Origin: Candidatus Eiseniibacteriota bacterium | GTDB lineage: Bacteria > Joyebacterota > Joyebacteria > Joyebacterales > Joyebacteraceae | Reading direction: 5' to 3' | Assembly: GCA_043819135.1 (NCBI GenBank) | Contig: JBDRFG010000013.1 | Coordinates: 1-56,957 of the forward strand | DNA length: 56,957 nucleotides | Made by a program: the position numbers and the translations under genes | Part shown: positions 4,171-15,446 of the stretch, piece after piece | Position numbering within the stretch: position 1 is the first letter of the stretch | How the letters are laid out: the number at the start of each line of letters is the position of its first letter | Notes under the pieces: generated by a model | Databases searched by the model: none | The model's input: only the letters and a program-made list of their open reading frames with translations | What the model was told of the DNA's origin: nothing

Positions 4171-5517
4171 ATGATGCGAATGTCCTCTCAGGGTGTCGAC
4201 GTTGCCATAATCGGAGCCGGGCCGGCGGGCTCCAGTGCGGCAATGCCGGTCGCGAAAACCGGACGCAGCGTGCTCATCATCGAGCGCGAGCAAGCTCAGG
4301 ACGTGGGCAGAAAGGTGTGCGGCAACGCCATCGCTGCTGACGGACTCGATCCGGTGTCGGAGCATGTACGTCCGCCGAGTGGTCCGGAGGTCGCCGCCAG
4401 GCTCCAGACCGGGACTCTCTACGTGCACGGTGAGAGCGAGGGAGTGCGCCTTCCGGCGCCCGGCGTCGTGCTCAACCGTCTCGTCTTCGGTCAGCGGCTC
4501 CTCGCGGACGCGCTCGCCGAGGGCGCTCGGCTGGCGGACTCTTGTACGTGCGTCGGCTGGTCGGACCGTGGCGACACGCGCATTCGCGTGCGAAGCGCGG
4601 CCGGCGAGGACAACGATATCCGAGCGCGCGTGGTCATCGATGCTTCCGGATACCGCTCGGTCCTGACGAGAGGCGGCGGTCCGAGCCACGCAGACAGGAC
4701 GACCCGCTCGGAGGTGGGCGTCGGCTACCGGGAGATACTCACGCTACCCGAGCCGATGGACGAGAGCGCGGACGGGTTCGTCGTCTTCTTCCCGGCTGGG
4801 GCGGAGCGCGGATACGCGTGGGTCTTCCCGATGGGTGGAAGGCTGGCCAACGTCGGCATCGGGACGACGCTTGAGAACGTCAAAGGAAACCTCCGCGACG
4901 CGTATCGGACCTTCGTGAGCGGAAGGCCAGAGCTTGCCGGGGCGCAGGTCGTGTCGAGCGGAGCCGGGATGCTCCCACTCAGGCGGCCGCTCGCGAGCGT
5001 CGTCGGCGACGGCTTCATGGCGGCCGGTGACGCGGGGTGCCAGACGAGCCCGATCCACGGCGGCGGAATCGCCCCTGCGATCGCCGCGGGCGTCATGGCG
5101 GGAGAACAGGCGGTCGAGGCGCTTTCGAACGGCGACACCTCCGCCGACTCGCTGTGGGGCTACGGTGTCCGTGTCATGGAGCGCATCGGGAAGTACTACG
5201 GCGCGCATGAGGTGCTCCGGGATCTCGTCTACTCCCTCTCGGGCGAAGAGCTGCTCTTCCTCGCCAGGCGTCTGGCCGCATCCGGACGGATCATAGAGAC
5301 CATACACGAGGGCAGCCTCCTGTCGTCGGTCGGGCAGGGGATCCGTCTCCTCGTCCCCTTCGCGGGCAGGCCGGGCCTGGCAGCGCGGGTCATCAGCGCC
5401 AGCCGCAGAATGGCCGCGGTGCGCGATCACTACGTGGACTACCCCGACTCGCCGGCGAAGCTCGGCTCGTGGCTCGGGCGGGCGGAGTTCCTGAGACGGA
5501 ATGGAGGTGCGGGATGA
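4171..5517 (+). CDS. Geranylgeranyl reductase family FAD-dependent oxidoreductase
   Basis: DVAIIGAGPAGS FAD fold, KVCGNAI, VIDASG, GYAWVFP, GDAGCQTSPIHGGGI. Confidence 0.85.
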   Translation: MMRMSSQGVDVAIIGAGPAGSSAAMPVAKTGRSVLIIEREQAQDVGRKVCGNAIAADGLDPVSEHVRPPSGPEVAARLQTGTLYVHGESEGVRLPAPGVVLNRLVFGQRLLADALAEGARLADSCTCVGWSDRGDTRIRVRSAAGEDNDIRARVVIDASGYRSVLTRGGGPSHADRTTRSEVGVGYREILTLPEPMDESADGFVVFFPAGAERGYAWVFPMGGRLANVGIGTTLENVKGNLRDAYRTFVSGRPELAGAQVVSSGAGMLPLRRPLASVVGDGFMAAGDAGCQTSPIHGGGIAPAIAAGVMAGEQAVEALSNGDTSADSLWGYGVRVMERIGKYYGAHEVLRDLVYSLSGEELLFLARRLAASGRIIETIHEGSLLSSVGQGIRLLVPFAGRPGLAARVISASRRMAAVRDHYVDYPDSPAKLGSWLGRAEFLRRNGGAG

Positions 5518-6782
5518 GCTGCCGGCTTCTTGAGAACGCGACAGGGACCGCGGCCGCGGCGGCCATGGTGGCCGCGCTTCTTATCGCCTCCCCCTCGCTG
5601 GGAGCGGTGAGTTTCGTCGAAGACCTTGGAGACGGCGCCGTTGGCGCGGGCACAATGGAGGACCCGTACCGCGACCTGCAGACGGCCATCGACCTCGCCT
5701 CGGACGGCGACGTGCTGCGCATCCTGCCAGGAACCTACCGCGCGGACGTCACGGAATTCACCGAGGAGCTCTGCGGGAACTGTGAGAACCACCGCACGAC
5801 CGTCCAGGCTACGGTGGGCTTCGTTGTGACGGGAAAGGTGCTGCACCTGGCTGGCGGCGGGCCGTCCGAGACGATCCTCAAGACGGGCTCGGGATACGGC
5901 CTCTACTTCGAGGACAGTCGGGGTTCGGTCGTGACCGGTCTGACGATCACGGGAGGAACGCGCGACCCCGACGGCATGGCCACCGACGCGGGCGTGGTGG
6001 CCAGACGGAGCACCGTCACACTGACGAACCTCGAGATAGTCGACAACACCGACCGCGCGGATGACGTGGTCGTCGGGGTAGGCGGTGTGATGGGTCGCGA
6101 GGGCGCGGAACTCTTCATCACTAACTGCGTGATCCGCAACAACGGGTGGGACGGCGTCGCGCTCTACCGCGGCGCGACCGCGTTCATCGCGGACAACGAC
6201 ATATCAGTCGGCCGTGGCGCCGGTATCGGCGTCACCTGGGACGCGACTGCCACGGTAATCAGAAACCGCGTCTCCGGCTATTGGAAGGGCATCGGCTCCT
6301 TCGGGAGTTCCCGCGTCGTCGCGAGAAACAACGCAGTGTTCGACAACCTGGGTTGGGGAATGGTCGTGACCGGAACGTCCTACATGGAAGCCGCGAACAA
6401 CGTCATCGCGCGGAACGGCAATTGCGGATTCGCGCTCTGGAGCGATGAGGCCACGGGTATCTTCACGAACAACATCGTGACGGCGAACGGATGGCGCGAG
6501 GAGTGGGTCTGCCCACAGGTCGGCGTGTGGATGAACGGCGTGCCGGAAGCGATAGAGATCAGCTACAATGACGTGTGGGGCAACACGGCGGGCGACTACG
6601 GCGACATGGACGAGCTGACAGGCTCCGGCGGCAACATCTCCCTCGACCCCGCTTTCGTCGACAGCTTCGATTTTCGCCTCTCTCCAGAATCGCCCTGCCT
6701 GGATGCAGGGAACCCGCTCTTCACAGACCCGGACGGCGGACCCGCCGACATGGGTATCTACGGGGGTCCGGCGGCGAGGTAA
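5514..6782 (+). CDS. Secreted right-handed parallel beta-helix protein
   Basis: ATGA overlap with the upstream stop; signal peptide; GTMEDPYRDLQTAID start; repeated I..N.I..N...G units; DFRLSPESPCLDAG...DMGIYGG end. Confidence 0.8.
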   Translation: MSCRLLENATGTAAAAAMVAALLIASPSLGAVSFVEDLGDGAVGAGTMEDPYRDLQTAIDLASDGDVLRILPGTYRADVTEFTEELCGNCENHRTTVQATVGFVVTGKVLHLAGGGPSETILKTGSGYGLYFEDSRGSVVTGLTITGGTRDPDGMATDAGVVARRSTVTLTNLEIVDNTDRADDVVVGVGGVMGREGAELFITNCVIRNNGWDGVALYRGATAFIADNDISVGRGAGIGVTWDATATVIRNRVSGYWKGIGSFGSSRVVARNNAVFDNLGWGMVVTGTSYMEAANNVIARNGNCGFALWSDEATGIFTNNIVTANGWREEWVCPQVGVWMNGVPEAIEISYNDVWGNTAGDYGDMDELTGSGGNISLDPAFVDSFDFRLSPESPCLDAGNPLFTDPDGGPADMGIYGGPAAR

Positions 6783-6909: not shown

Positions 6910-8178
6910 CTACTCCGACGGCCGCCCGGACCCGGAGCGCTCCCCGGCCTGACGCCTCGCGTCCTCCCCTATCGTCTTCCACTTGAATCTCAGTTCGCGG
7001 AAGCGATCTCCGCGGATGACCTCGAGATCCGTGGGCTGCACGGGGAATCCGTCACGGCTCGCCAGCGACGTATAGTTGAAGGCGCAGTAGTAGTCGGGCA
7101 CGCGGTGCGGGTCCGTGTTGTCCTCGGCGAAGCCGATGGAGACCGGGCAGGTTACGCAGGCGGCGAAGAACCGGCAGTCGGCGCACGTGCGATAGGAGGA
7201 GTACTTCTTCTCCTTCTCGGCAATGATGGAAAGGCGCTCGACGTCGCCGGCGAACGCGGCCATGCGCGCCGCGAGGCCTGGATCGGCTGCGCGCCCGAGG
7301 GTCAACGCGGGGCGGCAAACGCGCAGGAGCGGCGAGCCGAACGCCTGTATCGATGGGGCGAACAGCGTGCACCCGGAGACGGTCCCGTCCACGTCGACGG
7401 CCCATGAGTTGCTATCGACGATCTCACACATGGCCCGGCTCGTCACCGGCGGGCCGGAAAGATGGCCCTTGCCCGCGTAGAGCAGCAGGGGAACATCGCC
7501 GGTCCGCTCCAAGTGCTTGAGAGAAGATTCGAGAATGCGGTCGAACTGCGACTCAAGCTCCCGGTGGCAGTCTTCGTCCCAACCCGAGCTCGGCGTCATG
7601 ACGGGCGTCAGGTCGATCTCACCCACACCCTTTCCCAACAGATAGTCGACGGAATCTCCAAGGAACGGCACGGCGCGTGGTGACACGGTAACGCTGATCT
7701 CAACGGCCCGCCTGAAGTAGTCCGGGTGTCGCGTTCTCAGTGAGTCGAGCACGCGGTCGAGCGTCCTGAATGTGTCTTCGCCACGGAAGTCCTGTGCCTC
7801 ACGCACGCCGTCGAAACTCAGGAGGATCTTGAACTCGTGAGCCGCGAGGAAGTCCGCTATGTCTTCAGTGATGAGTGTACCGTTTGTGACGATCCAGTAC
7901 TTGATGCGTTCGTCGCGCCTGCGCGCGCACTCGATGTAGTCGACCGTTCTGCGCATTAGTGCGAACTCGAGAAGTGGCTCCCCGCCGTAGAAGGTGAGTT
8001 CCGTTCCGCCTCCGTGCGCGGACAGGGCGAGGTCGGCGGCGGCCCGGGCGACGGGCCACTCCATGCTTCGCGGCTCCCGCACGCTCTGATAGCAGTAGCT
8101 GCAGTTCATGTTGCAGCGCGTGGTCAGTATGAGGGTCAGGCGCGATGACCGGCCGCGGTTCTCCATCGTGGGGTCCAT
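6910..8178 (-). CDS. Radical SAM/SPASM domain protein (peptide or protein maturase type)
   Basis: CNMNCSYC, FYGGEPLL, TNGTL, LSFDG; SPASM cysteines MC...DGTVSGC and CADCRFFAACVTC...YYC; no N-terminal RRE-sized extension. Confidence 0.9.
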   Translation of the reverse strand: MDPTMENRGRSSRLTLILTTRCNMNCSYCYQSVREPRSMEWPVARAAADLALSAHGGGTELTFYGGEPLLEFALMRRTVDYIECARRRDERIKYWIVTNGTLITEDIADFLAAHEFKILLSFDGVREAQDFRGEDTFRTLDRVLDSLRTRHPDYFRRAVEISVTVSPRAVPFLGDSVDYLLGKGVGEIDLTPVMTPSSGWDEDCHRELESQFDRILESSLKHLERTGDVPLLLYAGKGHLSGPPVTSRAMCEIVDSNSWAVDVDGTVSGCTLFAPSIQAFGSPLLRVCRPALTLGRAADPGLAARMAAFAGDVERLSIIAEKEKKYSSYRTCADCRFFAACVTCPVSIGFAEDNTDPHRVPDYYCAFNYTSLASRDGFPVQPTDLEVIRGDRFRELRFKWKTIGEDARRQAGERSGSGRPSE

Positions 8179-8195
8179 TCCGAGGCAGCGCGTTT

Positions 8196-8243
8196 CAGGT
8201 CAGGGAGTGCGGCCCCCGGTGCAGAGAGGCCGCACTCGACCTG
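8196..8243 (-). terminator. Intergenic stem-loop between the 110-aa gene and the rSAM gene
   Basis: GAGTGCGGCC (8205-8214) pairs with GGCCGCACTC (8228-8237), extended by CAGGTC/GACCTG across a 3-nt bulge; no U-tract on the minus strand. Confidence 0.55.
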
Positions 8244-8254
8244 TTTGAGAGAGG

Positions 8255-8587
8255 TCAGGCGTTCGTGCTCTCGTCCGAGGGAGGCCACGCTCCGGCATCG
8301 AGCGGAGTCGCCGGGTCGTAACCGCCGAGCTTCGACTCGACATCGCGCACCCAGTCCCTGAGACCCTCAACGGTCTCGATCAGACCCGCGACGGTGAACC
8401 TCTCCTTGATCGCAGTTGCGCACACGCTGCCCGAGACAATGGGCACCGAACAGACTGCGGTCTTGCCGGGCGTGTTGTCGATCTCGATATCCGGGTCGCA
8501 CTGATTCAGTTTCTCCGCGATGCCGTTGAGTGAGTTGACGACCCCGCTGAGATCGGTGGTAAAATCGCCGATTGTGAATGCAGACAT
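8255..8587 (-). CDS. 110-aa protein with an internal repeat; candidate rSAM substrate or precursor
   Basis: Strong AGGAGGTG RBS; lies between the kinase and the rSAM gene on the same strand; residues 4-37 and 64-97 align; two central Cys. Confidence 0.8.
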   Translation of the reverse strand: MSAFTIGDFTTDLSGVVNSLNGIAEKLNQCDPDIEIDNTPGKTAVCSVPIVSGSVCATAIKERFTVAGLIETVEGLRDWVRDVESKLGGYDPATPLDAGAWPPSDESTNA

Positions 8588-8609
8588 CGAGCACCTCCTG
8601 TCTGTGGAC

Positions 8610-11207
8610 TCAGTACGAGTCCGGTGGACCCTCCGATACCCAGACGTCGCCGGTCAGGTCTTGTCGCGAGAACACGAGCAGTCGAGCCTCCTGAGACAGA
8701 TCGAACAACCCGGAGGCTCTCTCCGTTCCGAACACGACCTCCGGTTCGAGGAGCTCGGCCTCACCGGTTTCCGGAGAGACCGTCCAGAGCGACCTGCGGT
8801 CCTCTCCACAGGTCGCCGCAGCGAGGATCGTTCCGGTGGCAGCGTCCCATCGAACTCGCGTGGCGTCCACTCCGTCGGTCAGCTGCCTGGCGGGCGCTCC
8901 TCCGTCCGACGGAACTACCCAGATCTCATCGCGGTCGTCCGTAGAACCCACGAACGCTATCTCCGAGCCGTCGGGAGACCACACGGGAGAGGCGGCTGGT
9001 ATGCGACCGTCGGTCAGCCGGCGGGGCTCGCCCGCGGGCTTGCCTTCGTGCACGGGAGCGATCCGCACGTCGCGGATCCCGGCCCTGCTTGATATGAAGG
9101 CCAGCATGCTGCCGTCGGGCGACCAGGCAGGATGGACGTCCTGTCCCGGGCCATCGGTGAATTGGACAGGCCGCCCAGCGCCCGTGGGGATGATCCAGAT
9201 GTCCCGCTTTCCCTCGTTAATGAGGTAGTACGCGATCCATCGCCCGTCGGGCGAATAGGAGGGGTGGGATGCGCTCCCTTCCTGGTCGGTCAGCCGCCTG
9301 GGAGGGCCCGACGGAACGCCGTCGTCCAGTAGCTGTTCGGCCAGCTCACCACGCCTGTCCCACCGCTCGGAAACGAACACCATCCGGCTCCCGTCAGGAG
9401 ATATCGACGCGAGCACTATTTGCCTCATCCGACCTATGGTGGTCTCCTTCCCCGTATCCAGATCGACGAGGACAGCGCCCGAGCCCGGATTGCCGGTGGA
9501 GTAGGCGAGCCTGGACCCGTCCGCGGACACGCTGGGCTCCGACTCGTAGCCGGTTCCCTGTGTCATGCGGCGGGGCTCCCCGCCCCTGCTCGACACGCGC
9601 CACAGGGCCAGGGTGCCATGGCGCCAGGAATCGAAGTAGACGTAGTCGCCATCGCTCGACCACGCACACTCTGTTCCACCGCTCCTGTTCCTCGTCAGCC
9701 GACGCGGCGCGCCCCCCTCTGCAGAGACCGTCCAGAGGTTGGCTTGCCCCGAGTAGCTGAGGATCCTGCCGTCAGGTGACCAGGCCGCTCCGACATGGTC
9801 CCACAGGCCGTGATCGCCCGTCGTGAGCATTGTCGCGTCCGAGGGGTCGTCGAGCGAGGCCACCCAAATGCGCAGTTCACAGGAGTCGCCGGGTCTCGAG
9901 AAGGCGATCCTGGCGCCATCCGGAGAGATCGCCGGATACTCCGCGTCCTCCAGCAGGAGCGTCGCGCCTCCACCGAACTGTCCCACTTCCCACACGCTTC
10001 GCAGTCCGGTGCGGTCGGACACGAAGGCGATCGCCGCTCCATTGGGAAGCCACGTCGGCGCGAAGTCCATGGCAGGATCGGTGGTCAGCTGCAGGATGCG
10101 TCCACCCAACACGTCGGTCACGTACAAGTCGGAATTCCCTGACGCCACGGAAACGTACGCTATGCGCGTTCCGTCAGGCGATATCGCCGGCTCGCCCTCC
10201 CACTCCTCTCCGCTCGTCACCTGCATGGGGATCCCTACCGCCATTGGCTTCTCGGCACTGAGCCTGCTGACCGTCCATAGCGCGGCGAGAGCCACGACGG
10301 CCGCCGCCGAGACGATCGCCGCGATGCGCAGGTTGCGCTCCTTCGCGCGCGCGAACCACCACGTCTCCGTTCTGCTCTCGTCGCTCAACTCGAGTTCACG
10401 GGCCAGCGCGTGGAGGTCCTCGACCATCTCGCTCATGCTGGCGTAGCGCTTGCCCACCCTCTTTTCGAGCGCCTTCGCAACGATCCCGGACAGCTGCGGC
10501 GGTGCGGCGGGGGCAACCTGGGACAGTTGATCGGGCCGGTCCTGCTGTATGGCTCGGATGACGGCGCGCTCTCCGTCCCCACTGAAGGGACGTCGACCAG
10601 AGACCATCTCGTAGAGGAGGACCCCGAGCGACCAGATGTCGGCCCGCTCGTCCACCTCCTCGCCGCGCGTCTGCTCCGGGGACATGTACGCGACCGTACC
10701 AACCGCGTTCCCGCTCTTCGTGAGACTGCTCTGTCCGGCGAGCTTCGCCAGGCCGAAGTCGACGAGCCTCACGTGCCCGCGCTCGGACACCATGACGTTC
10801 CCCGGCTTCACGTCGCGGTGCGTGATGCCGGCCTCGTGCGCGGCCACGAGCCCGCGCGCGATCTGGAGGCCGAATCTTATCGCCTCCCCCGGCGAGACCG
10901 GCCCCCTGCGGATGATGTCTTTGAGCGTGTCTCCCTCGTAGCAGGTCATGCAGATGAAGACCTGGCCATCGTCGGTCTCATCGATCTCGTGGATCGTGCA
11001 GATGTTCTGGTGCTCGAGGGCGGAAACGACCTGCGCCTCGCGAAGGAAGCGTTCCCTTTGGAGGTTGTCGCCGGTCAGATCCCTGGAGAGGAACTTGAGC
11101 GCGACCGTGCGGCCGAGCTTCGTGTCGGCGGCCTTGTAGACCACGCCCATACCGCCCTCGCCGATCTTCTCGAGGATCGTGTAGTGGGAGATCGTCTTGC
11201 CGACCAC
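8610..11207 (-). CDS. Membrane Hanks-type Ser/Thr kinase with extracytoplasmic TolB/PD40 beta-propeller repeats
   Basis: GTG start at 11207 after GGAGG; GEGGMG, VALK, HRDVKPGN, DFGLA, GTVAYMSPEQ; one TM helix; many P.WSPDG..IA repeats. Confidence 0.92.
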   Translation of the reverse strand: MVGKTISHYTILEKIGEGGMGVVYKAADTKLGRTVALKFLSRDLTGDNLQRERFLREAQVVSALEHQNICTIHEIDETDDGQVFICMTCYEGDTLKDIIRRGPVSPGEAIRFGLQIARGLVAAHEAGITHRDVKPGNVMVSERGHVRLVDFGLAKLAGQSSLTKSGNAVGTVAYMSPEQTRGEEVDERADIWSLGVLLYEMVSGRRPFSGDGERAVIRAIQQDRPDQLSQVAPAAPPQLSGIVAKALEKRVGKRYASMSEMVEDLHALARELELSDESRTETWWFARAKERNLRIAAIVSAAAVVALAALWTVSRLSAEKPMAVGIPMQVTSGEEWEGEPAISPDGTRIAYVSVASGNSDLYVTDVLGGRILQLTTDPAMDFAPTWLPNGAAIAFVSDRTGLRSVWEVGQFGGGATLLLEDAEYPAISPDGARIAFSRPGDSCELRIWVASLDDPSDATMLTTGDHGLWDHVGAAWSPDGRILSYSGQANLWTVSAEGGAPRRLTRNRSGGTECAWSSDGDYVYFDSWRHGTLALWRVSSRGGEPRRMTQGTGYESEPSVSADGSRLAYSTGNPGSGAVLVDLDTGKETTIGRMRQIVLASISPDGSRMVFVSERWDRRGELAEQLLDDGVPSGPPRRLTDQEGSASHPSYSPDGRWIAYYLINEGKRDIWIIPTGAGRPVQFTDGPGQDVHPAWSPDGSMLAFISSRAGIRDVRIAPVHEGKPAGEPRRLTDGRIPAASPVWSPDGSEIAFVGSTDDRDEIWVVPSDGGAPARQLTDGVDATRVRWDAATGTILAAATCGEDRRSLWTVSPETGEAELLEPEVVFGTERASGLFDLSQEARLLVFSRQDLTGDVWVSEGPPDSY

Positions 11208-11393
11208 TGCCACCTCCGCGGAGCGCTGTCTGGAGCAGGACGTCATGGTCCGTGCTAATCCAGCAGTGATTCTAACGGAGAGAGAGTCTTCTGTATAGCT
11301 GACTTGCGACTTTTTCGCGCAGGGCCGAGCGGGCAAGGTGCGGAAACCGAAGCTGGTCGCGACTCTAGGCGGGGCCACGGCGGGACCACGGCG

Positions 11394-13526
11394 CTACTGC
11401 GCGTACTGCAGCTGATAGAGGCGGTAGTAGTAGCCGCGCTTCGCCAGGAGTTCCTGGTGGCTGCCGACCTCGCGGATCTTGCCTCGATGCATGACCAGTA
11501 TCTTGTCCGCGTGTTGGATGGTCGACAGGCGGTGCGCGATGGCGATCGAGGTCCGCCCCTCCATCAGACGCACGAGAGCCTCCTGGATCAGGTGTTCGGT
11601 CTCGGTGTCTATGTTCGACGTGGCCTCGTCCAGAATGAGAATGCGCGGGTCGAACGCGAGCGCCCGGGCGAACGACAGTAGCTGCCGCTGCCCCGTCGAT
11701 AGCGTCACGCCCCGCTCACGGACCTCCTCGTCGTAGCCATCGGGGAGCTTCTCGATGAACCGGTCCGCGTTGACATGCTCCGCGACCTTCCTGATCTCCG
11801 CGTCGGAGATGGACTCGTTCCCGAGCCTGATGTTGCCCTTGATGTCGCCGGCGAACACGAAGACGTCCTGCATGACCAGACCCAGGTGCGAGCGGAGGAA
11901 CGACTTCTCCATGTCCCTGATGTCGACCCCGTCCAGCGTGATGCGCCCCTTCTGTATGTCGTAGAAGCGCTCGAGCAGGCTGATTATCGAGGTCTTGCCC
12001 GCGCCGGTCGCGCCGACTATCGCGACGGTCTCACCTGGCTCGACAGTGAACGAGACGTCCCTGAGCACCCATTCGTCCTCGACGTATCCGAACCACACGT
12101 TCTCGAACGCTATCCGGCCGCGGACCTCGTCGGGGCGACGAGGGACCGCAGGCTCCGGAACCATGTCCTCGTCATCGAGCAGCATGAATATCCGCTCGGA
12201 CGACGCCATCGCCTGCTGCATCGTCCCGTACTGCTGAGCGAGGTTCCTCAAGGGACGGAAGAACATCTGCACGTATGAGAGAAACGCGACAAGCGTCCCG
12301 AGTGACAGCGTCGCCTGGACGACCTTCCCGCCGCCGTACCAGATGACGAGCGCGATGGCCACCGAACTTGCGAGTTCCATGAGCGGCATGAACATGGCGA
12401 AGACTTTCATCTGGCGCATCGCCGCGACGAAGTTCTCGTGGTTGATGCCCGCGAATCGGCGGAAGCTCTCGGTCTCGCGCCTGAAGATCTGCGTCACGCG
12501 CATTCCACTGATGCTCTCGTTCAAGGACGCGTTTATTCGCGCCACTTTGACGCGCACCTCGCGGAACGCGTCGCGGATGCGGACGCCGAAGCTCGCGGTG
12601 ATCCACGCCGTGATGGGCAGGACAATGAAGCTGACGAGCGCCAGACGCCAGTTGAGCCTCAGGAGCACGACGACGACACCGATGAGAATGAACATGTCGT
12701 GCAGGATCGTGATCACGATGGACGTGAACATCTCGTGCAGCACGGCGATGTCGTTGGTCGCGCGCGTGACGAGCCGGCCGACCGGGTTCCTGTCGAAGAA
12801 TGAGAGCGAGAGCTTCTGGAGATGGCGAAGCACCTTCATGCGGATGTCGTACATCACGCGCTGAGACGTGACCTCCATCATGTTGATCTGGAGCAGGGTG
12901 AAGCCGAACGTCAGAGCGAGGAGCACGAGAATGGCGAGCGCGATCTTCGCGACGCCGCGGAGGTCGTCGCCCCTCAGGTCGCGAAGATCTTCCCTCGTAA
13001 GATCGCTGAGCCGCTCCACGGGGATGCCGACGCGCGAGCCGGCGTCCAGGAACCCGGTCCGGTCGAAGGTGCGCGCCTCGAAGAACGCGGCGTCCGCCAG
13101 GTAGTAGCGTCCGTCTCCGACCACGCCGAGTCCGGTCGCCCGCGCCACCTCACGGGGGTCGTAGCCTGACAGGGTCTTCGAGCTTATGAAGTAGCGCCCC
13201 TGGACGCTGCCCGGCACACCGGCAGAACCGTCCCCCGCGGGAGGCGTATCGACGGGCAGCAGATCCTCGGCGTGCCCCGCGATGAACTCGCGCGCGACCT
13301 CACCGCCGTCATCCGCGACAAGGCGCGAGGTGGCCACGATGTGATCGTCAAGCGCCATCCGTGTGAGATACGGGATCGCCAGCTCGAAACACGTCACCAC
13401 GACGAGCATCAGCACGGCCAGGATGACCAGCCTCGCGTACGGCTTGACGTACGTCATGAGCCGCCGCACCAGCCTCGCGTCGTATGGCTTGCCCAGGTTC
13501 TCTTCGTCGTGGTGGTCGTGGGACAT
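11394..13526 (-). CDS. ABC exporter half-transporter (BmrD/YheH-like), TMD plus NBD
   Basis: GATGAGKT, LSTGQRQ, ILDEAT, AHRLST; large insertion after the first TM helices. Confidence 0.92.
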   Translation of the reverse strand: MSHDHHDEENLGKPYDARLVRRLMTYVKPYARLVILAVLMLVVVTCFELAIPYLTRMALDDHIVATSRLVADDGGEVAREFIAGHAEDLLPVDTPPAGDGSAGVPGSVQGRYFISSKTLSGYDPREVARATGLGVVGDGRYYLADAAFFEARTFDRTGFLDAGSRVGIPVERLSDLTREDLRDLRGDDLRGVAKIALAILVLLALTFGFTLLQINMMEVTSQRVMYDIRMKVLRHLQKLSLSFFDRNPVGRLVTRATNDIAVLHEMFTSIVITILHDMFILIGVVVVLLRLNWRLALVSFIVLPITAWITASFGVRIRDAFREVRVKVARINASLNESISGMRVTQIFRRETESFRRFAGINHENFVAAMRQMKVFAMFMPLMELASSVAIALVIWYGGGKVVQATLSLGTLVAFLSYVQMFFRPLRNLAQQYGTMQQAMASSERIFMLLDDEDMVPEPAVPRRPDEVRGRIAFENVWFGYVEDEWVLRDVSFTVEPGETVAIVGATGAGKTSIISLLERFYDIQKGRITLDGVDIRDMEKSFLRSHLGLVMQDVFVFAGDIKGNIRLGNESISDAEIRKVAEHVNADRFIEKLPDGYDEEVRERGVTLSTGQRQLLSFARALAFDPRILILDEATSNIDTETEHLIQEALVRLMEGRTSIAIAHRLSTIQHADKILVMHRGKIREVGSHQELLAKRGYYYRLYQLQYAQ

Positions 13527-13559
13527 CGACTACTCCGTACGCTGTTGCCTGTCCGTCTG

Positions 13560-15317
13560 CTACTCGGAGCTGTCCGAGTCTTCCATCGCCGCCTCGAGGA
13601 GCTGACGTTCGTAGATGTTCGCGTAGAGCCCCGACTGCTCCGTAAGTTCCTCGTGAGTGCCCCGCTCGACGATGCGCCCTTCATCGAGGAGGATGATCTC
13701 GTTTGCGTGTTTGATGGACGAAATGCGGTGGGACACGATGATGCTCGTGCGGTTCTCGAGCGCACTACTCAGTTCCCGCTGGATCCTCTCCTCCGTCGCC
13801 GTGTCCACCGATGACAGCGCGTCGTCCAGCACCATGATGGCGGGCGCGTGCAGGAGGGCGCGCGCGATGGCGACTCGCTGCTTCTGTCCGCCGGAGAGCG
13901 TGACGCCCCTCTCTCCGACCAGCGTATCCAGCCCCGAGGGGAAACTCTCTATCTCGTCGAGTATGCCCGCGACACGCGCCGCCTCGATCACTCGCTCTTC
14001 ATCGGCGTCCGTTGCACCGAACCTGATGTTCTCCCTGATGGTGTCGGAGAAGAGGAACGTGTCCTGCGGGACGTAGCCGATCGAGCCCCGAAGCGAAGAG
14101 AGCGTCAACCCGGTGACGTCGCTGCCGTCTACGAGGACCTCGCCCTCCGTCGCCTCATGGATCCTCAGCAGCAGGTTGCACACCGTGCTCTTGCCCGAGC
14201 CCGTCCTGCCGATCACGCCCAGCGTGTGGCCCTGCGGAACGGCGAAGTTGACGTCAACCAGCGAGGGCTCGAGCCCCTCTTCGTAAGAGAAGGTGACGCC
14301 GCGAAACTCTACCTCCCCCCGCGGGTCGGCGAGCTCGACGGCGTTCTCGTGGTCGGCGATCTCAGGCACGACCTCGAGGATCCTGTTGATCCTGCCCATC
14401 GAGGCCGCACCGCGCTGGAGCACGTTGACGACCCAGCCCATCGCTATCATGGGCCAGGTGAGGATCCCCAGGTAGCTCGTGAACGCCACCAGGTCGCCGG
14501 TCGTGATGTCTCCGAGCATCACCTGCTTGCCACCGAAGTAGATGATGATCACTACGCTCATGGTGGACAGCATCATGATGAACGGGAAGAACGCGCCCCA
14601 CACCCGGACAAGCCGGATGTTGTCGCGGACGTATTCTTTCCCGATCACGGCGAGGCTCTTGAGTTCGTGCTCCTCCTGGGAATACGCCTTGACCACTCGG
14701 ATCCCGGACATGCTCTCGCGCACGCGCTCGGTCAGGGTTGAGAACGTCTCCTGTACCTTCTCGAACCTGCTGTGGAGCATCTTGCCGACGCGCAGTGTGA
14801 AGAGAGCGATTATCGGCATGGGAATGAGGGCCAGCAGAGTCAGCTTCACGTTCAACGCCAGCATGAATCCGATGGACGCTACGCCCAGGACGATGGCGTC
14901 AGTCATCGCCACGATGCCGAACCCGCACGCCATCCGCACCGCGTTCAAGTCGTTGATCGCGTGGGCCATGAGGTCGCCCGTCGTGTGGACGGCGTAGTAG
15001 CTGGCGGAGAGCCTCTGCAAGTGGCTGTAGAGGTCGTTCCTGATGTCCTCTTCGATGTGGCGGGACGTCCCGATGATGAAGAACCGCCAGAAGAACCTGA
15101 GAACCGCTATCCCTGCCGCGAACGCTACGATGCGAAGCCCGTACGAGAGCAGGTTCGCGTTTCCGGCGCCCAAATAGGTCAGATCGTCGACGGCCCGTTT
15201 GATGATCCTCGGAATGATGAGCTGCATCCCGTCTACGAAGAGCAGGCAGACGACGCCGGCCACGACGGCCCACTTGTATTTTGCGAAGTGCTTGAGCAGA
15301 TGCTTGAGGTTGCCCAT
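13560..15317 (-). CDS. ABC exporter half-transporter (BmrC/YheI-like), TMD plus NBD
   Basis: Start MGNLKHLLK after GAGG; GRTGSGKS, LSGGQKQ, degenerate Walker B VLDDAL typical of heterodimeric exporters. Confidence 0.92.
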   Translation of the reverse strand: MGNLKHLLKHFAKYKWAVVAGVVCLLFVDGMQLIIPRIIKRAVDDLTYLGAGNANLLSYGLRIVAFAAGIAVLRFFWRFFIIGTSRHIEEDIRNDLYSHLQRLSASYYAVHTTGDLMAHAINDLNAVRMACGFGIVAMTDAIVLGVASIGFMLALNVKLTLLALIPMPIIALFTLRVGKMLHSRFEKVQETFSTLTERVRESMSGIRVVKAYSQEEHELKSLAVIGKEYVRDNIRLVRVWGAFFPFIMMLSTMSVVIIIYFGGKQVMLGDITTGDLVAFTSYLGILTWPMIAMGWVVNVLQRGAASMGRINRILEVVPEIADHENAVELADPRGEVEFRGVTFSYEEGLEPSLVDVNFAVPQGHTLGVIGRTGSGKSTVCNLLLRIHEATEGEVLVDGSDVTGLTLSSLRGSIGYVPQDTFLFSDTIRENIRFGATDADEERVIEAARVAGILDEIESFPSGLDTLVGERGVTLSGGQKQRVAIARALLHAPAIMVLDDALSSVDTATEERIQRELSSALENRTSIIVSHRISSIKHANEIILLDEGRIVERGTHEELTEQSGLYANIYERQLLEAAMEDSDSSE

Positions 15318-15411
15318 CTGGTCCTCGGGCTGGGCCGGAGAATCACTCGGAGTGCGCGGGACCGGCGGTGCGCGCGAGCTCCACGTGGCGCACCGGCTCC
15401 GGAGTGCGCGC

Positions 15412-15446
15412 AAAAACGGCCCCGCACCGTTCCGGGCGTGCGAGGC
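15412..15446 (-). terminator. Terminator-like hairpin inside the ABC exporter 5' leader (possible attenuator)
   Basis: GCCUCGCAC/GUGCGGGGC 9-bp stem followed by CGUUUUU, between the promoter and the start codon. Confidence 0.5.

Follow-up and report, generated by a model that had tools for sequence, protein, structure and literature searches.

Closest described systems

The gene unit analysed here resembles several described systems, each in part. In its plan it recalls agr and ComQXPA, in which a maturase, a precursor made of a helix and a core, and a membrane receptor kinase are encoded in one block and the peptide is variable; both use histidine kinases, response regulators and non-radical chemistry. 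Our unit consists of three minus-strand open reading frames (ORFs) spanning positions 6910..11207 of a 56,957-nt stretch of DNA from Candidatus Eiseniibacteriota (contig JBDRFG010000013.1; hereafter, the window), arranged in the order receptor kinase, small gene, radical S-adenosylmethionine (rSAM) enzyme with a SPASM domain. Unlike agr and ComQXPA, it has a Hanks-type kinase, no conserved regulator and no homologous component, and its export is not encoded; by analogy, its working would resemble pheromone signalling of the agr or ComQXP type, with unrelated parts. The best explanation of the whole, to which we give slightly less than an even chance, is that the enzyme cross-links a loop Cys of the small protein and that the receptor kinase possibly senses the product through its propeller.

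For the enzyme, the nearest comparison is with ranthipeptide maturases, and the ranthipeptides of the SCIFF type reportedly have a signalling role. CteA/CteB (SCIFF, PDB 5WGG) and PapA/PapB (freyrasin, NF047865) share with the window's unit a seven-Cys SPASM region, a predicted open first auxiliary site and a small Cys-bearing neighbour. The enzyme differs from these maturases in scoring below both cut-offs (124.9 bits against 340 for PapB, the best NCBIfam model, and 62.9 against 425 for SCIFF), in lacking a RiPP recognition element (RRE), fused or separate, and in carrying T271-L272 where they have His-Gln after the auxiliary Cys. The unit as a whole differs in its obligate receptor kinase gene and in its putative precursors, which carry 1–5 Cys without a shared acceptor.

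The cyclophane maturases (ChlB, 9GM3; the AmcB, DynA and YhhB models) are likewise without an RRE and of similar length; unlike in the cyclophane/triceptide systems, no aromatic three-residue motif is found in the cores here, and the AmcB, DynA and YhhB scores lie far below their cut-offs. anSME (4K37; TIGR03942), the source of the automatic 'AslB' label, also has no RRE and acts on a Cys in a protein. It differs in an extra auxiliary Cys and in a catalytic Asp after the auxiliary Cys; the enzyme here reaches 55 bits against its cut-off of 349, and no sulfatase lies near the cassette in 44 loci. Finally, in CrpA/CrpC of Methanococcus voltae a SPASM enzyme installs thioethers on a protein-sized neighbour (PMC13692751), which is a precedent for the chemistry and not for the architecture: CrpC has a predicted RRE, the substrate is Cys-rich, the host is archaeal and the abstract mentions no kinase.

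Layout of the unit

The three minus-strand ORFs proposed in an earlier note on this DNA were all found, and the gaps of 22 nt (kinase to small gene) and 76 nt (small gene to rSAM gene) agree with it. The first ORF (8610..11207), with a GTG start at 11207 after GGAGG and its end at 8610, encodes a receptor-type Hanks Ser/Thr kinase of 865 aa, in which Pfam recognizes Pkinase at residues 9–256 (E 8e-54) and eight PD40 stretches (E 3e-60). The catalytic motifs GEGGMG, VALK, HRDVKPGN, DFG and SPE are intact. The kinase domain (PF00069; 10440..11183) is followed by a predicted transmembrane helix at residues 295–313 (10269..10325; mean hydropathy 2.39 over 19 residues, with basic residues on the kinase side) and by a TolB-like (PD40) propeller region of ~545 aa (8613..10250), a cassette-specific orthologue whose conservation profile shows a G-x-W-x-H-x-x-P-x-W-S-P-D-G loop in its first half. 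Hydropathy gives one membrane helix in all 33 full-length kinase orthologues. The propeller region would be periplasmic and the sensor, and the kinase domain cytoplasmic.

The small gene (8255..8587) encodes a protein of 110 aa, and the strong ribosome-binding site (RBS) claimed for it is indeed present as AGGAGGT (8593..8599), 5 nt before the ATG. The third gene (6910..8178; PF04055; 422 aa) encodes the RRE-less rSAM/SPASM enzyme; a start at the ATG at 8166 is likelier than one at 8178, because the database form has 418 aa.

Conservation and distribution of the three genes

A survey of the rSAM clade recovered 52 loci in 46 genomes of two phyla; below, G-numbers denote the genomes surveyed and L-numbers the loci, that is, DNA stretches in those genomes. 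Four loci end too near a contig edge, and upstream DNA is readable in 48. A TolB-type propeller gene lies directly upstream of the small gene, followed by the enzyme, in 46 of these 48, with flanks that are unrelated across the two phyla; a kinase-type receptor gene or its propeller is directly upstream in 47. Among the 46, the fused kinase domain was seen in 39, frameshifted in one, located on an adjoining contig in one and cut by contig ends in five. One of the two exceptions, G269, carries a clean 3.2-kb deletion relative to G692, which also clips the enzyme's first Cys. In the other, G434, a gene encoding a kinase, nSTAND1, a membrane helix and WD40 replaces the TolB-type receptor (L078:2295-6776); the small protein beside it resembles that of the window by eye.

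The linkage of the three genes is far beyond chance, because 47 of 48 loci have such a receptor gene or its propeller directly upstream though five sampled genomes hold from 3 to 59 kinases each; the loci share ancestry, however, and do not count as independent draws. Where kinase-propeller genes are abundant, as in G823 with its 59 kinases, mere neighbourhood or a spurious small ORF might be suspected. The neighbourhood survey refutes this, with the order shared in 46 of 48 loci and the small gene under purifying selection (ratio of nonsynonymous to synonymous substitution rates, dN/dS, 0.30–0.38), and we regard chance as practically out of the question. G692 and G823 (22 and 59 kinases) each have a single copy of the propeller orthologue, located in the cassette; none was found in the cassette-less relatives G269, G503 and G494. 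G692 also holds tandem Ser/Thr kinase arrays without this cassette's propeller (G692:C8:6457-15563 and G692:C3:70636-105259).

Five genomes with two enzymes (G564, G539, G702, G919 and G945) keep two receptors where both loci are readable; one receptor per cassette points to a one-to-one pairing, whether the kinase acts upstream of the enzyme or receives its product. L108 and L115 are cut by contig ends, and L145 gave no clean small ORF; in L145:2560-2960 (G945:C309) the propeller end and the small gene are apparently joined by a deletion, as in a decaying copy of the cassette.

An all-against-all comparison of 973 ORFs from 44 loci detected no fourth gene conserved outside close relatives, except for ABC ATPases of a generic kind and a winged-helix family found near five loci; across the 44 loci, no exporter, protease or response regulator was conserved and no sulfatase recurred. 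The three genes are a real, conserved unit of uncultured bacteria. The trio is apparently undescribed and matches no family model; a search of the full-text literature found no description of it, subscription papers and bioRxiv supplements, which could hold one, being outside its coverage.

Within the window's phylum, the enzyme was detected in 5 of 31 genomes (40–100% identity) and the small gene in the same five only. The small protein and this rSAM clade do co-occur, a point on which the earlier note had staked its proposal. Two of the five small proteins were in the search profile; a profile leaving them out still scored them at 29.7 and 18.2 bits, where shuffles reached at most 4 to 6. 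Outside the phylum, the enzyme turned up in one of 370 genomes sampled, and searches around that genome found it in 13/301, 9/25, 7/119, 23/251 and 1/10 genomes (the sets overlap). Named homologues are labelled Candidatus Eisenbacteria and Vicinamibacteria, and of the 13 labelled members of the Atlas cluster closest to the enzyme, most are Acidobacteriota. Viral contigs yielded distant rSAM genes only (best-segment identity 22–43%), and plasmids gave no rSAM match at 1e-30.

Such patchy presence (5/31, 13/301 and 23/251 genomes), together with the clean loss in G269 and the kinase-less propellers retained in some relatives, could suit a product that is an antibacterial peptide and that the propeller detects or neutralises, the kinase-less propellers being immunity-only remnants. 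We consider this very unlikely: many members have one Cys and very short cores, there is no dedicated exporter, and PADLOC gave generic kinase and viperin matches only. On the same generic matches, a reading of the unit as a defence system was rejected.

The radical SAM/SPASM enzyme

The enzyme combines a CxxxCxxC motif (C22, C26, C29) with two sets of auxiliary-cluster Cys (C251 and C270; C332, C335, C341, C344 and C365, with the spacing Cx2Cx5Cx2C), the features that define rSAM/SPASM membership, although Pfam PF13186 gave no match at E 0.1. In 41 of 41 locus copies all ten Cys are conserved without exception, including the seven of the SPASM region, where the earlier note had recognized SPASM cysteines; no other column is as much as 50% Cys. 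The reported absence of an N-terminal region of RRE size was likewise borne out: CxxxCxxC begins at residue 22, the 21 residues before the first Cys leave no room, and none of 105 relatives has more than 47 residues before the motif. No RRE was seen in the enzyme model (predicted local distance difference test, pLDDT, 90). No match to the PqqD-type PF05402 was found in G000 (92% complete) or G023 (100%), and those in G692, G823 and G776 are not near the cassette.

The best solved relative is CteB (5WGG, E 2.8e-32), to which C251 and C270 align. The first auxiliary position has one Cys here, as in CteB, and two in anSME; the CteB auxiliary cluster has an open site that faces the substrate and is placed to bind it, according to PMC8326336. 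For a finer comparison we used six active-site-proximal positions taken from PMC10288494. The window's enzyme has Y, Y, V, S, T, L; the hairpin sactisynthase StsB, as given there, has Y, T, I, S, K, L; and the aligned residues are F, F, T, S, H, Q in CteB, F, Q, Q, S, D, F in anSME and Y, H, Q, S (first four) in ChlB. The enzyme thus equals StsB at three of six positions (Y, S, L) and is similar at one (V/I), and equals CteB at one; it differs from StsB at positions 2 and 5, and StsB works with an RRE protein encoded separately and with a hairpin core that has several Cys. At positions 2 and 3, ChlB carries His and Gln, this clade mostly hydrophobic or small residues. Positions 5 and 6, T271-L272 here, are mostly V, T, L, P or A followed by M or L in the clade. 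The profile argues against anSME and cyclophane chemistry and leans, tentatively given that the Lys essential in StsB is missing, to sactionine formation; the chemistry is probably of a known kind.

The small protein

No Pfam or NCBIfam family matched the small protein, in line with the earlier note, which did not recognize it as a known precursor family, and NCBIfam had none for seven further small proteins. The Cys/Ser/Thr-rich centre described there is enriched, but modestly (9 of 32 residues versus 13 of 78 elsewhere), and its loop serines did not prove invariant: in the centre, none of 11 close homologues departs from the three Cys, T39, P40, G41 and P49, while the serines vary. In 24 sequences C56 is invariant, and C46 and P49 reach at least 90%. 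The central loop with C30, C46, P49 and C56 (8393..8503) would form the core.

In the predicted structure, helices 6–28 and 66–87 have a pLDDT of ~90 or more and loop 40–55 is below 50. The model depicts two amphipathic helices forming a hairpin that presents a disordered Cys loop (C46, P49, C56). In the window's clade the protein is an internal duplication, with two helical repeats 60 residues apart (hhalign 80%, E 1.4e-5). A PDB sequence search with the small-protein profile returned coiled-coil matches only, and the ESM Atlas gave no feature match and only helical-bundle structure matches under the naming bar. A WXG100-like reading was rejected, there being no WxG turn in the sequence.

The small protein is the fastest-changing of the three, with 47–49% identity to its G006 counterpart versus 88% for the kinase domain and 78% for the enzyme. 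Against G006, dN/dS is highest in the loop (0.63–0.71; helices 0.18–0.30); against L002 the loop is not set apart (0.36; helices 0.05 and 0.34).

Across loci, the small ORFs were chosen by the best RBS between propeller and enzyme. They are 52–142 aa long and by eye mostly combine an amphipathic helix with a Pro-rich linker and an end that bears Cys. Counted with one overlapping second ORF in L139 dropped and L145 left out, all 52 contain Cys, versus 50 of 74 control small ORFs from the window's genome. A C-terminal Cys is present in 16 of 52 (15 without the frameshifted half in L079) versus 2 of 74 controls; several of these ORFs are close kin, so they are not 16 independent cases. The overall Cys frequency is equal (2.1% versus 2.0%), so the signal lies in whether and where a Cys occurs, not in how many there are. 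Six residues ahead of the Cys, Pro is 3.7-fold enriched, and Cys-x-Pro and Cys-x-x-Pro occur at about twice the expected frequency. Neither a shared acceptor residue nor a shared aromatic near the Cys was found in the 52 ORFs, and no Ser or Thr is conserved in the cores across the family; a Thr-led motif marks the helix start in 25 of 52. L003 and L080 have two tandem small genes, and in G663 the helix and Cys-Pro motifs are repeated twice, in two frames either side of a C run (frameshift). Repeated cores are a trait of multi-core precursors. The helix profile of the window is matched by 8 of 47 small ORFs outside its clade (scoring above all 100 shuffles and above 8 bits), six of them in the other phylum. 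The general feature of precursors of peptides that are made on ribosomes and modified after translation (RiPPs), a conserved recognition part and a variable Cys core beside the enzyme, is present, with helix homology limited to the window's clade and those eight.

The proposal of the earlier note that the small protein is the rSAM substrate is well supported by this anatomy, and we consider it likely. A different view would keep the small protein whole and inside the cell, as a Cys-bearing regulator docking on the open auxiliary iron site or on the kinase, or as the target of a non-thioether change such as formylglycine. The unit has no protease or exporter, the core of the window's clade is enclosed by two stable helices in the model, and the doubled Cys-x-Pro/Cys-x-x-Pro pattern is loosely like the sulfatase motif. 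A precursor accounts better for the extreme divergence, the tandem copies and the repeated cores; as for formylglycine, the enzyme lacks the second upstream Cys of anSME and the Q, Q, D of its active site, and there is no sulfatase in the unit. We find such an intracellular role quite unlikely.

The role of the receptor kinase

Co-divergence was analysed in 33 full-length loci of 39 kinase rows, with a quick tree and FastTree. For the distal half of the propeller, the correlation with the enzyme is 0.54, roughly equal to the split-half reliability of both, versus 0.30 for the kinase domain; it exceeds the latter in 97 of 100 bootstraps. The kinase domain correlates with its own propeller at only 0.17–0.27, its split-half reliability being 0.79. 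Among supported splits, 9 of 14 in the propeller tree recur in the enzyme tree, versus 6 of 18 in the kinase tree. The kinase domain seems to have a history of its own, which is difficult to reconcile with a dedicated pair of kinase and substrate and agrees with a block of sensor, peptide and maturase. That the enzyme's history is followed more closely by the distal propeller than by the kinase domain favours peptide sensing. Synonymous divergence (dS) of the propeller is about twice that of the upstream ABC gene in three of four pairs; downstream genes are also high.

Two relatives, G007 and G010 (96% and 95% complete), have lost the kinase domain by an in-frame deletion that leaves the opening dozen codons of the kinase fused to the membrane helix and propeller; their small gene and enzyme are gone as well. 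These are two separate deletions, one each side of the propeller sequence, and since the two genomes are sisters on the adjacent ABC gene they represent one ancestral event. Kinase-less, membrane-anchored propeller genes (L049:1210-3138 in G007, L051:1075-3009 in G010 and L050:1-1620 in G006) are under purifying selection. In G006, which has a full cassette, this 5'-cut propeller copy is 96% identical to that of G007 and may be a paralogue or a binning error. That the propeller was retained after the kinase domain, peptide and enzyme were lost favours a coupling in the cytoplasm, and it suggests that the propeller has a useful ligand even without a peptide made by the same cell, either an unrelated cue or a neighbour's peptide.

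These losses count in favour of the alternative in which the kinase acts upstream: the propeller would sense an outside cue, the kinase would phosphorylate the precursor or the enzyme in the cytoplasm and so gate thioether modification, and the modified peptide would be the output. Also in its favour, the unit is self-contained and has no other output gene, G434 swaps the sensor and keeps the kinase, and, besides the Thr-led motif at the helix start, S276 and S327 of the enzyme are 95–97% conserved. The helix-start Thr is presumably an N-cap, which counts against this wiring, and so do the poor co-divergence of the kinase domain with the enzyme, the least of all despite a split-half reliability of 0.79, and the lack of conserved Ser or Thr in the cores; the co-loss in G007 and G010, for its part, is a single event. 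We judge an upstream kinase unlikely, if not remotely so. The earlier note's suggestion that the kinase phosphorylates the small protein fares accordingly: the joint loss of kinase, peptide and enzyme in G007/G010 speaks for it, while the cores offer no conserved phosphoacceptor and kinase and enzyme co-diverge poorly. A receptor for the product, which that note had not stated, fits at least as well as a kinase upstream.

Proposed mechanism

Under the preferred explanation, the enzyme would likely bind the small protein by its helices, with the small protein as its likely substrate. Given that, the loop Cys would rather probably be cross-linked as a Cys-to-carbon thioether, an attack on the alpha carbon being favoured because no acceptor side chain is shared near the Cys. 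The core may then be cut out and exported by general machinery, which we propose because the unit encodes no protease or exporter. That the product is the propeller ligand, with the kinase then phosphorylating host proteins, has about an even chance. More specifically, and still more tentatively, the unit may be a bacterial pair of peptide ligand and receptor Ser/Thr kinase, in which a dedicated, eukaryote-type receptor kinase reads an rSAM-cyclised, lineage-specific peptide via a beta-propeller as a kin-recognition signal in two phyla; its logic would be comparable to that of plant peptide-receptor kinase pairs. The linkage in 46 of 48 loci, the universal Cys, fast divergence, tandem small genes, repeated cores and the helical hairpin model support the explanation as a whole.

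Several observations weigh against it. Only 8 of 47 distant small ORFs match the helix profile, and the rest are equivalent by position only; the Lys at position 5 that is essential in StsB is absent from the enzyme. The co-divergence could be plain linkage distance, as only the propeller half nearest the small gene shows the signal: the first half fares no better than the kinase domain (57 of 100 bootstraps), and support drops to 87 of 100 with close kin thinned. Overall, conservation is alike in propeller and kinase (42% and 45%), and the propeller, with its conserved W-x-H loop, is not obviously hypervariable. The kinase-less propeller of G007 and G010 is maintained by purifying selection (dN/dS 0.27 over a dS of 0.53), and G434 has a different type of receptor. 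Lastly, no exporter, protease or response regulator is conserved that would account for release and output.

Neighbouring genes and other features

A stem-loop lies between the small gene and the rSAM gene on the minus strand (8194..8243; -34.4 kcal/mol, z -3.56), with none of 200 shuffles equally stable. L002 and L008 keep the stem with different loops, and no U-tail terminator was found at this site; the element would favour an excess of precursor over enzyme. A weak promoter-like site upstream of the kinase start (11269..11297, minus strand) fits by position and is not significant (one found versus 0.5 expected by chance).

Further upstream and co-directional lies an ABC transporter pair resembling MsbA/SmdAB (11394-15413, minus strand), a lineage-specific neighbour outside the unit. 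It was rejected as a dedicated exporter: it is generic and below cut-offs, is also kept in the cassette-less G007 and G010, and is not at this position in the other phylum. On the plus strand (4171-6782), two genes run toward the rSAM gene, one for a geranylgeranyl-reductase-like flavoprotein and one for a beta-helix (NosD-like) protein; G006 has the same order.

Among other loci, a winged-helix (Trans_reg_C) family lies near five cassettes (L154:2076-3575, L143, L144, L147 and L161) and is divergent from the kinase in L154. It was not established as a fourth unit member, the nearest flanking ORFs at four of the five loci being other things. In G025 only, an ATP-grasp gene (PF14397, L013:2631-3722) directly follows the rSAM gene and is possibly a local tailoring enzyme. 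In G663, an M64 peptidase-domain gene (L079:8137-9984) overlaps the rSAM end, and two kinase-propeller genes lie in tandem upstream (L079:773-6236). A second, unrelated rSAM/SPASM gene of ~870 aa (L028:898-3501, G000:C62, minus strand) has a long N-terminal region with a DDIED motif, which we take to resemble the DDxxD motif of isoprenoid synthases; similar long ORFs are present in 14 other genomes of the phylum.

Significance

This window contributes a two-helix variant in a second phylum, kinase-less relatives and a domain-wise test of co-divergence. The RRE-independent SPASM clade seems to accept diverse single-Cys cores behind a helical handle, C-terminal Cys included, and such an enzyme clade would be useful for peptide macrocyclisation. 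To our knowledge, very few bacterial Hanks kinases have a known extracellular ligand. These lineages are rich in kinase-propeller receptors, with up to 59 kinases per genome, and the unit names a candidate ligand beside its receptor; if true, this would be a new kind of bacterial peptide signalling.

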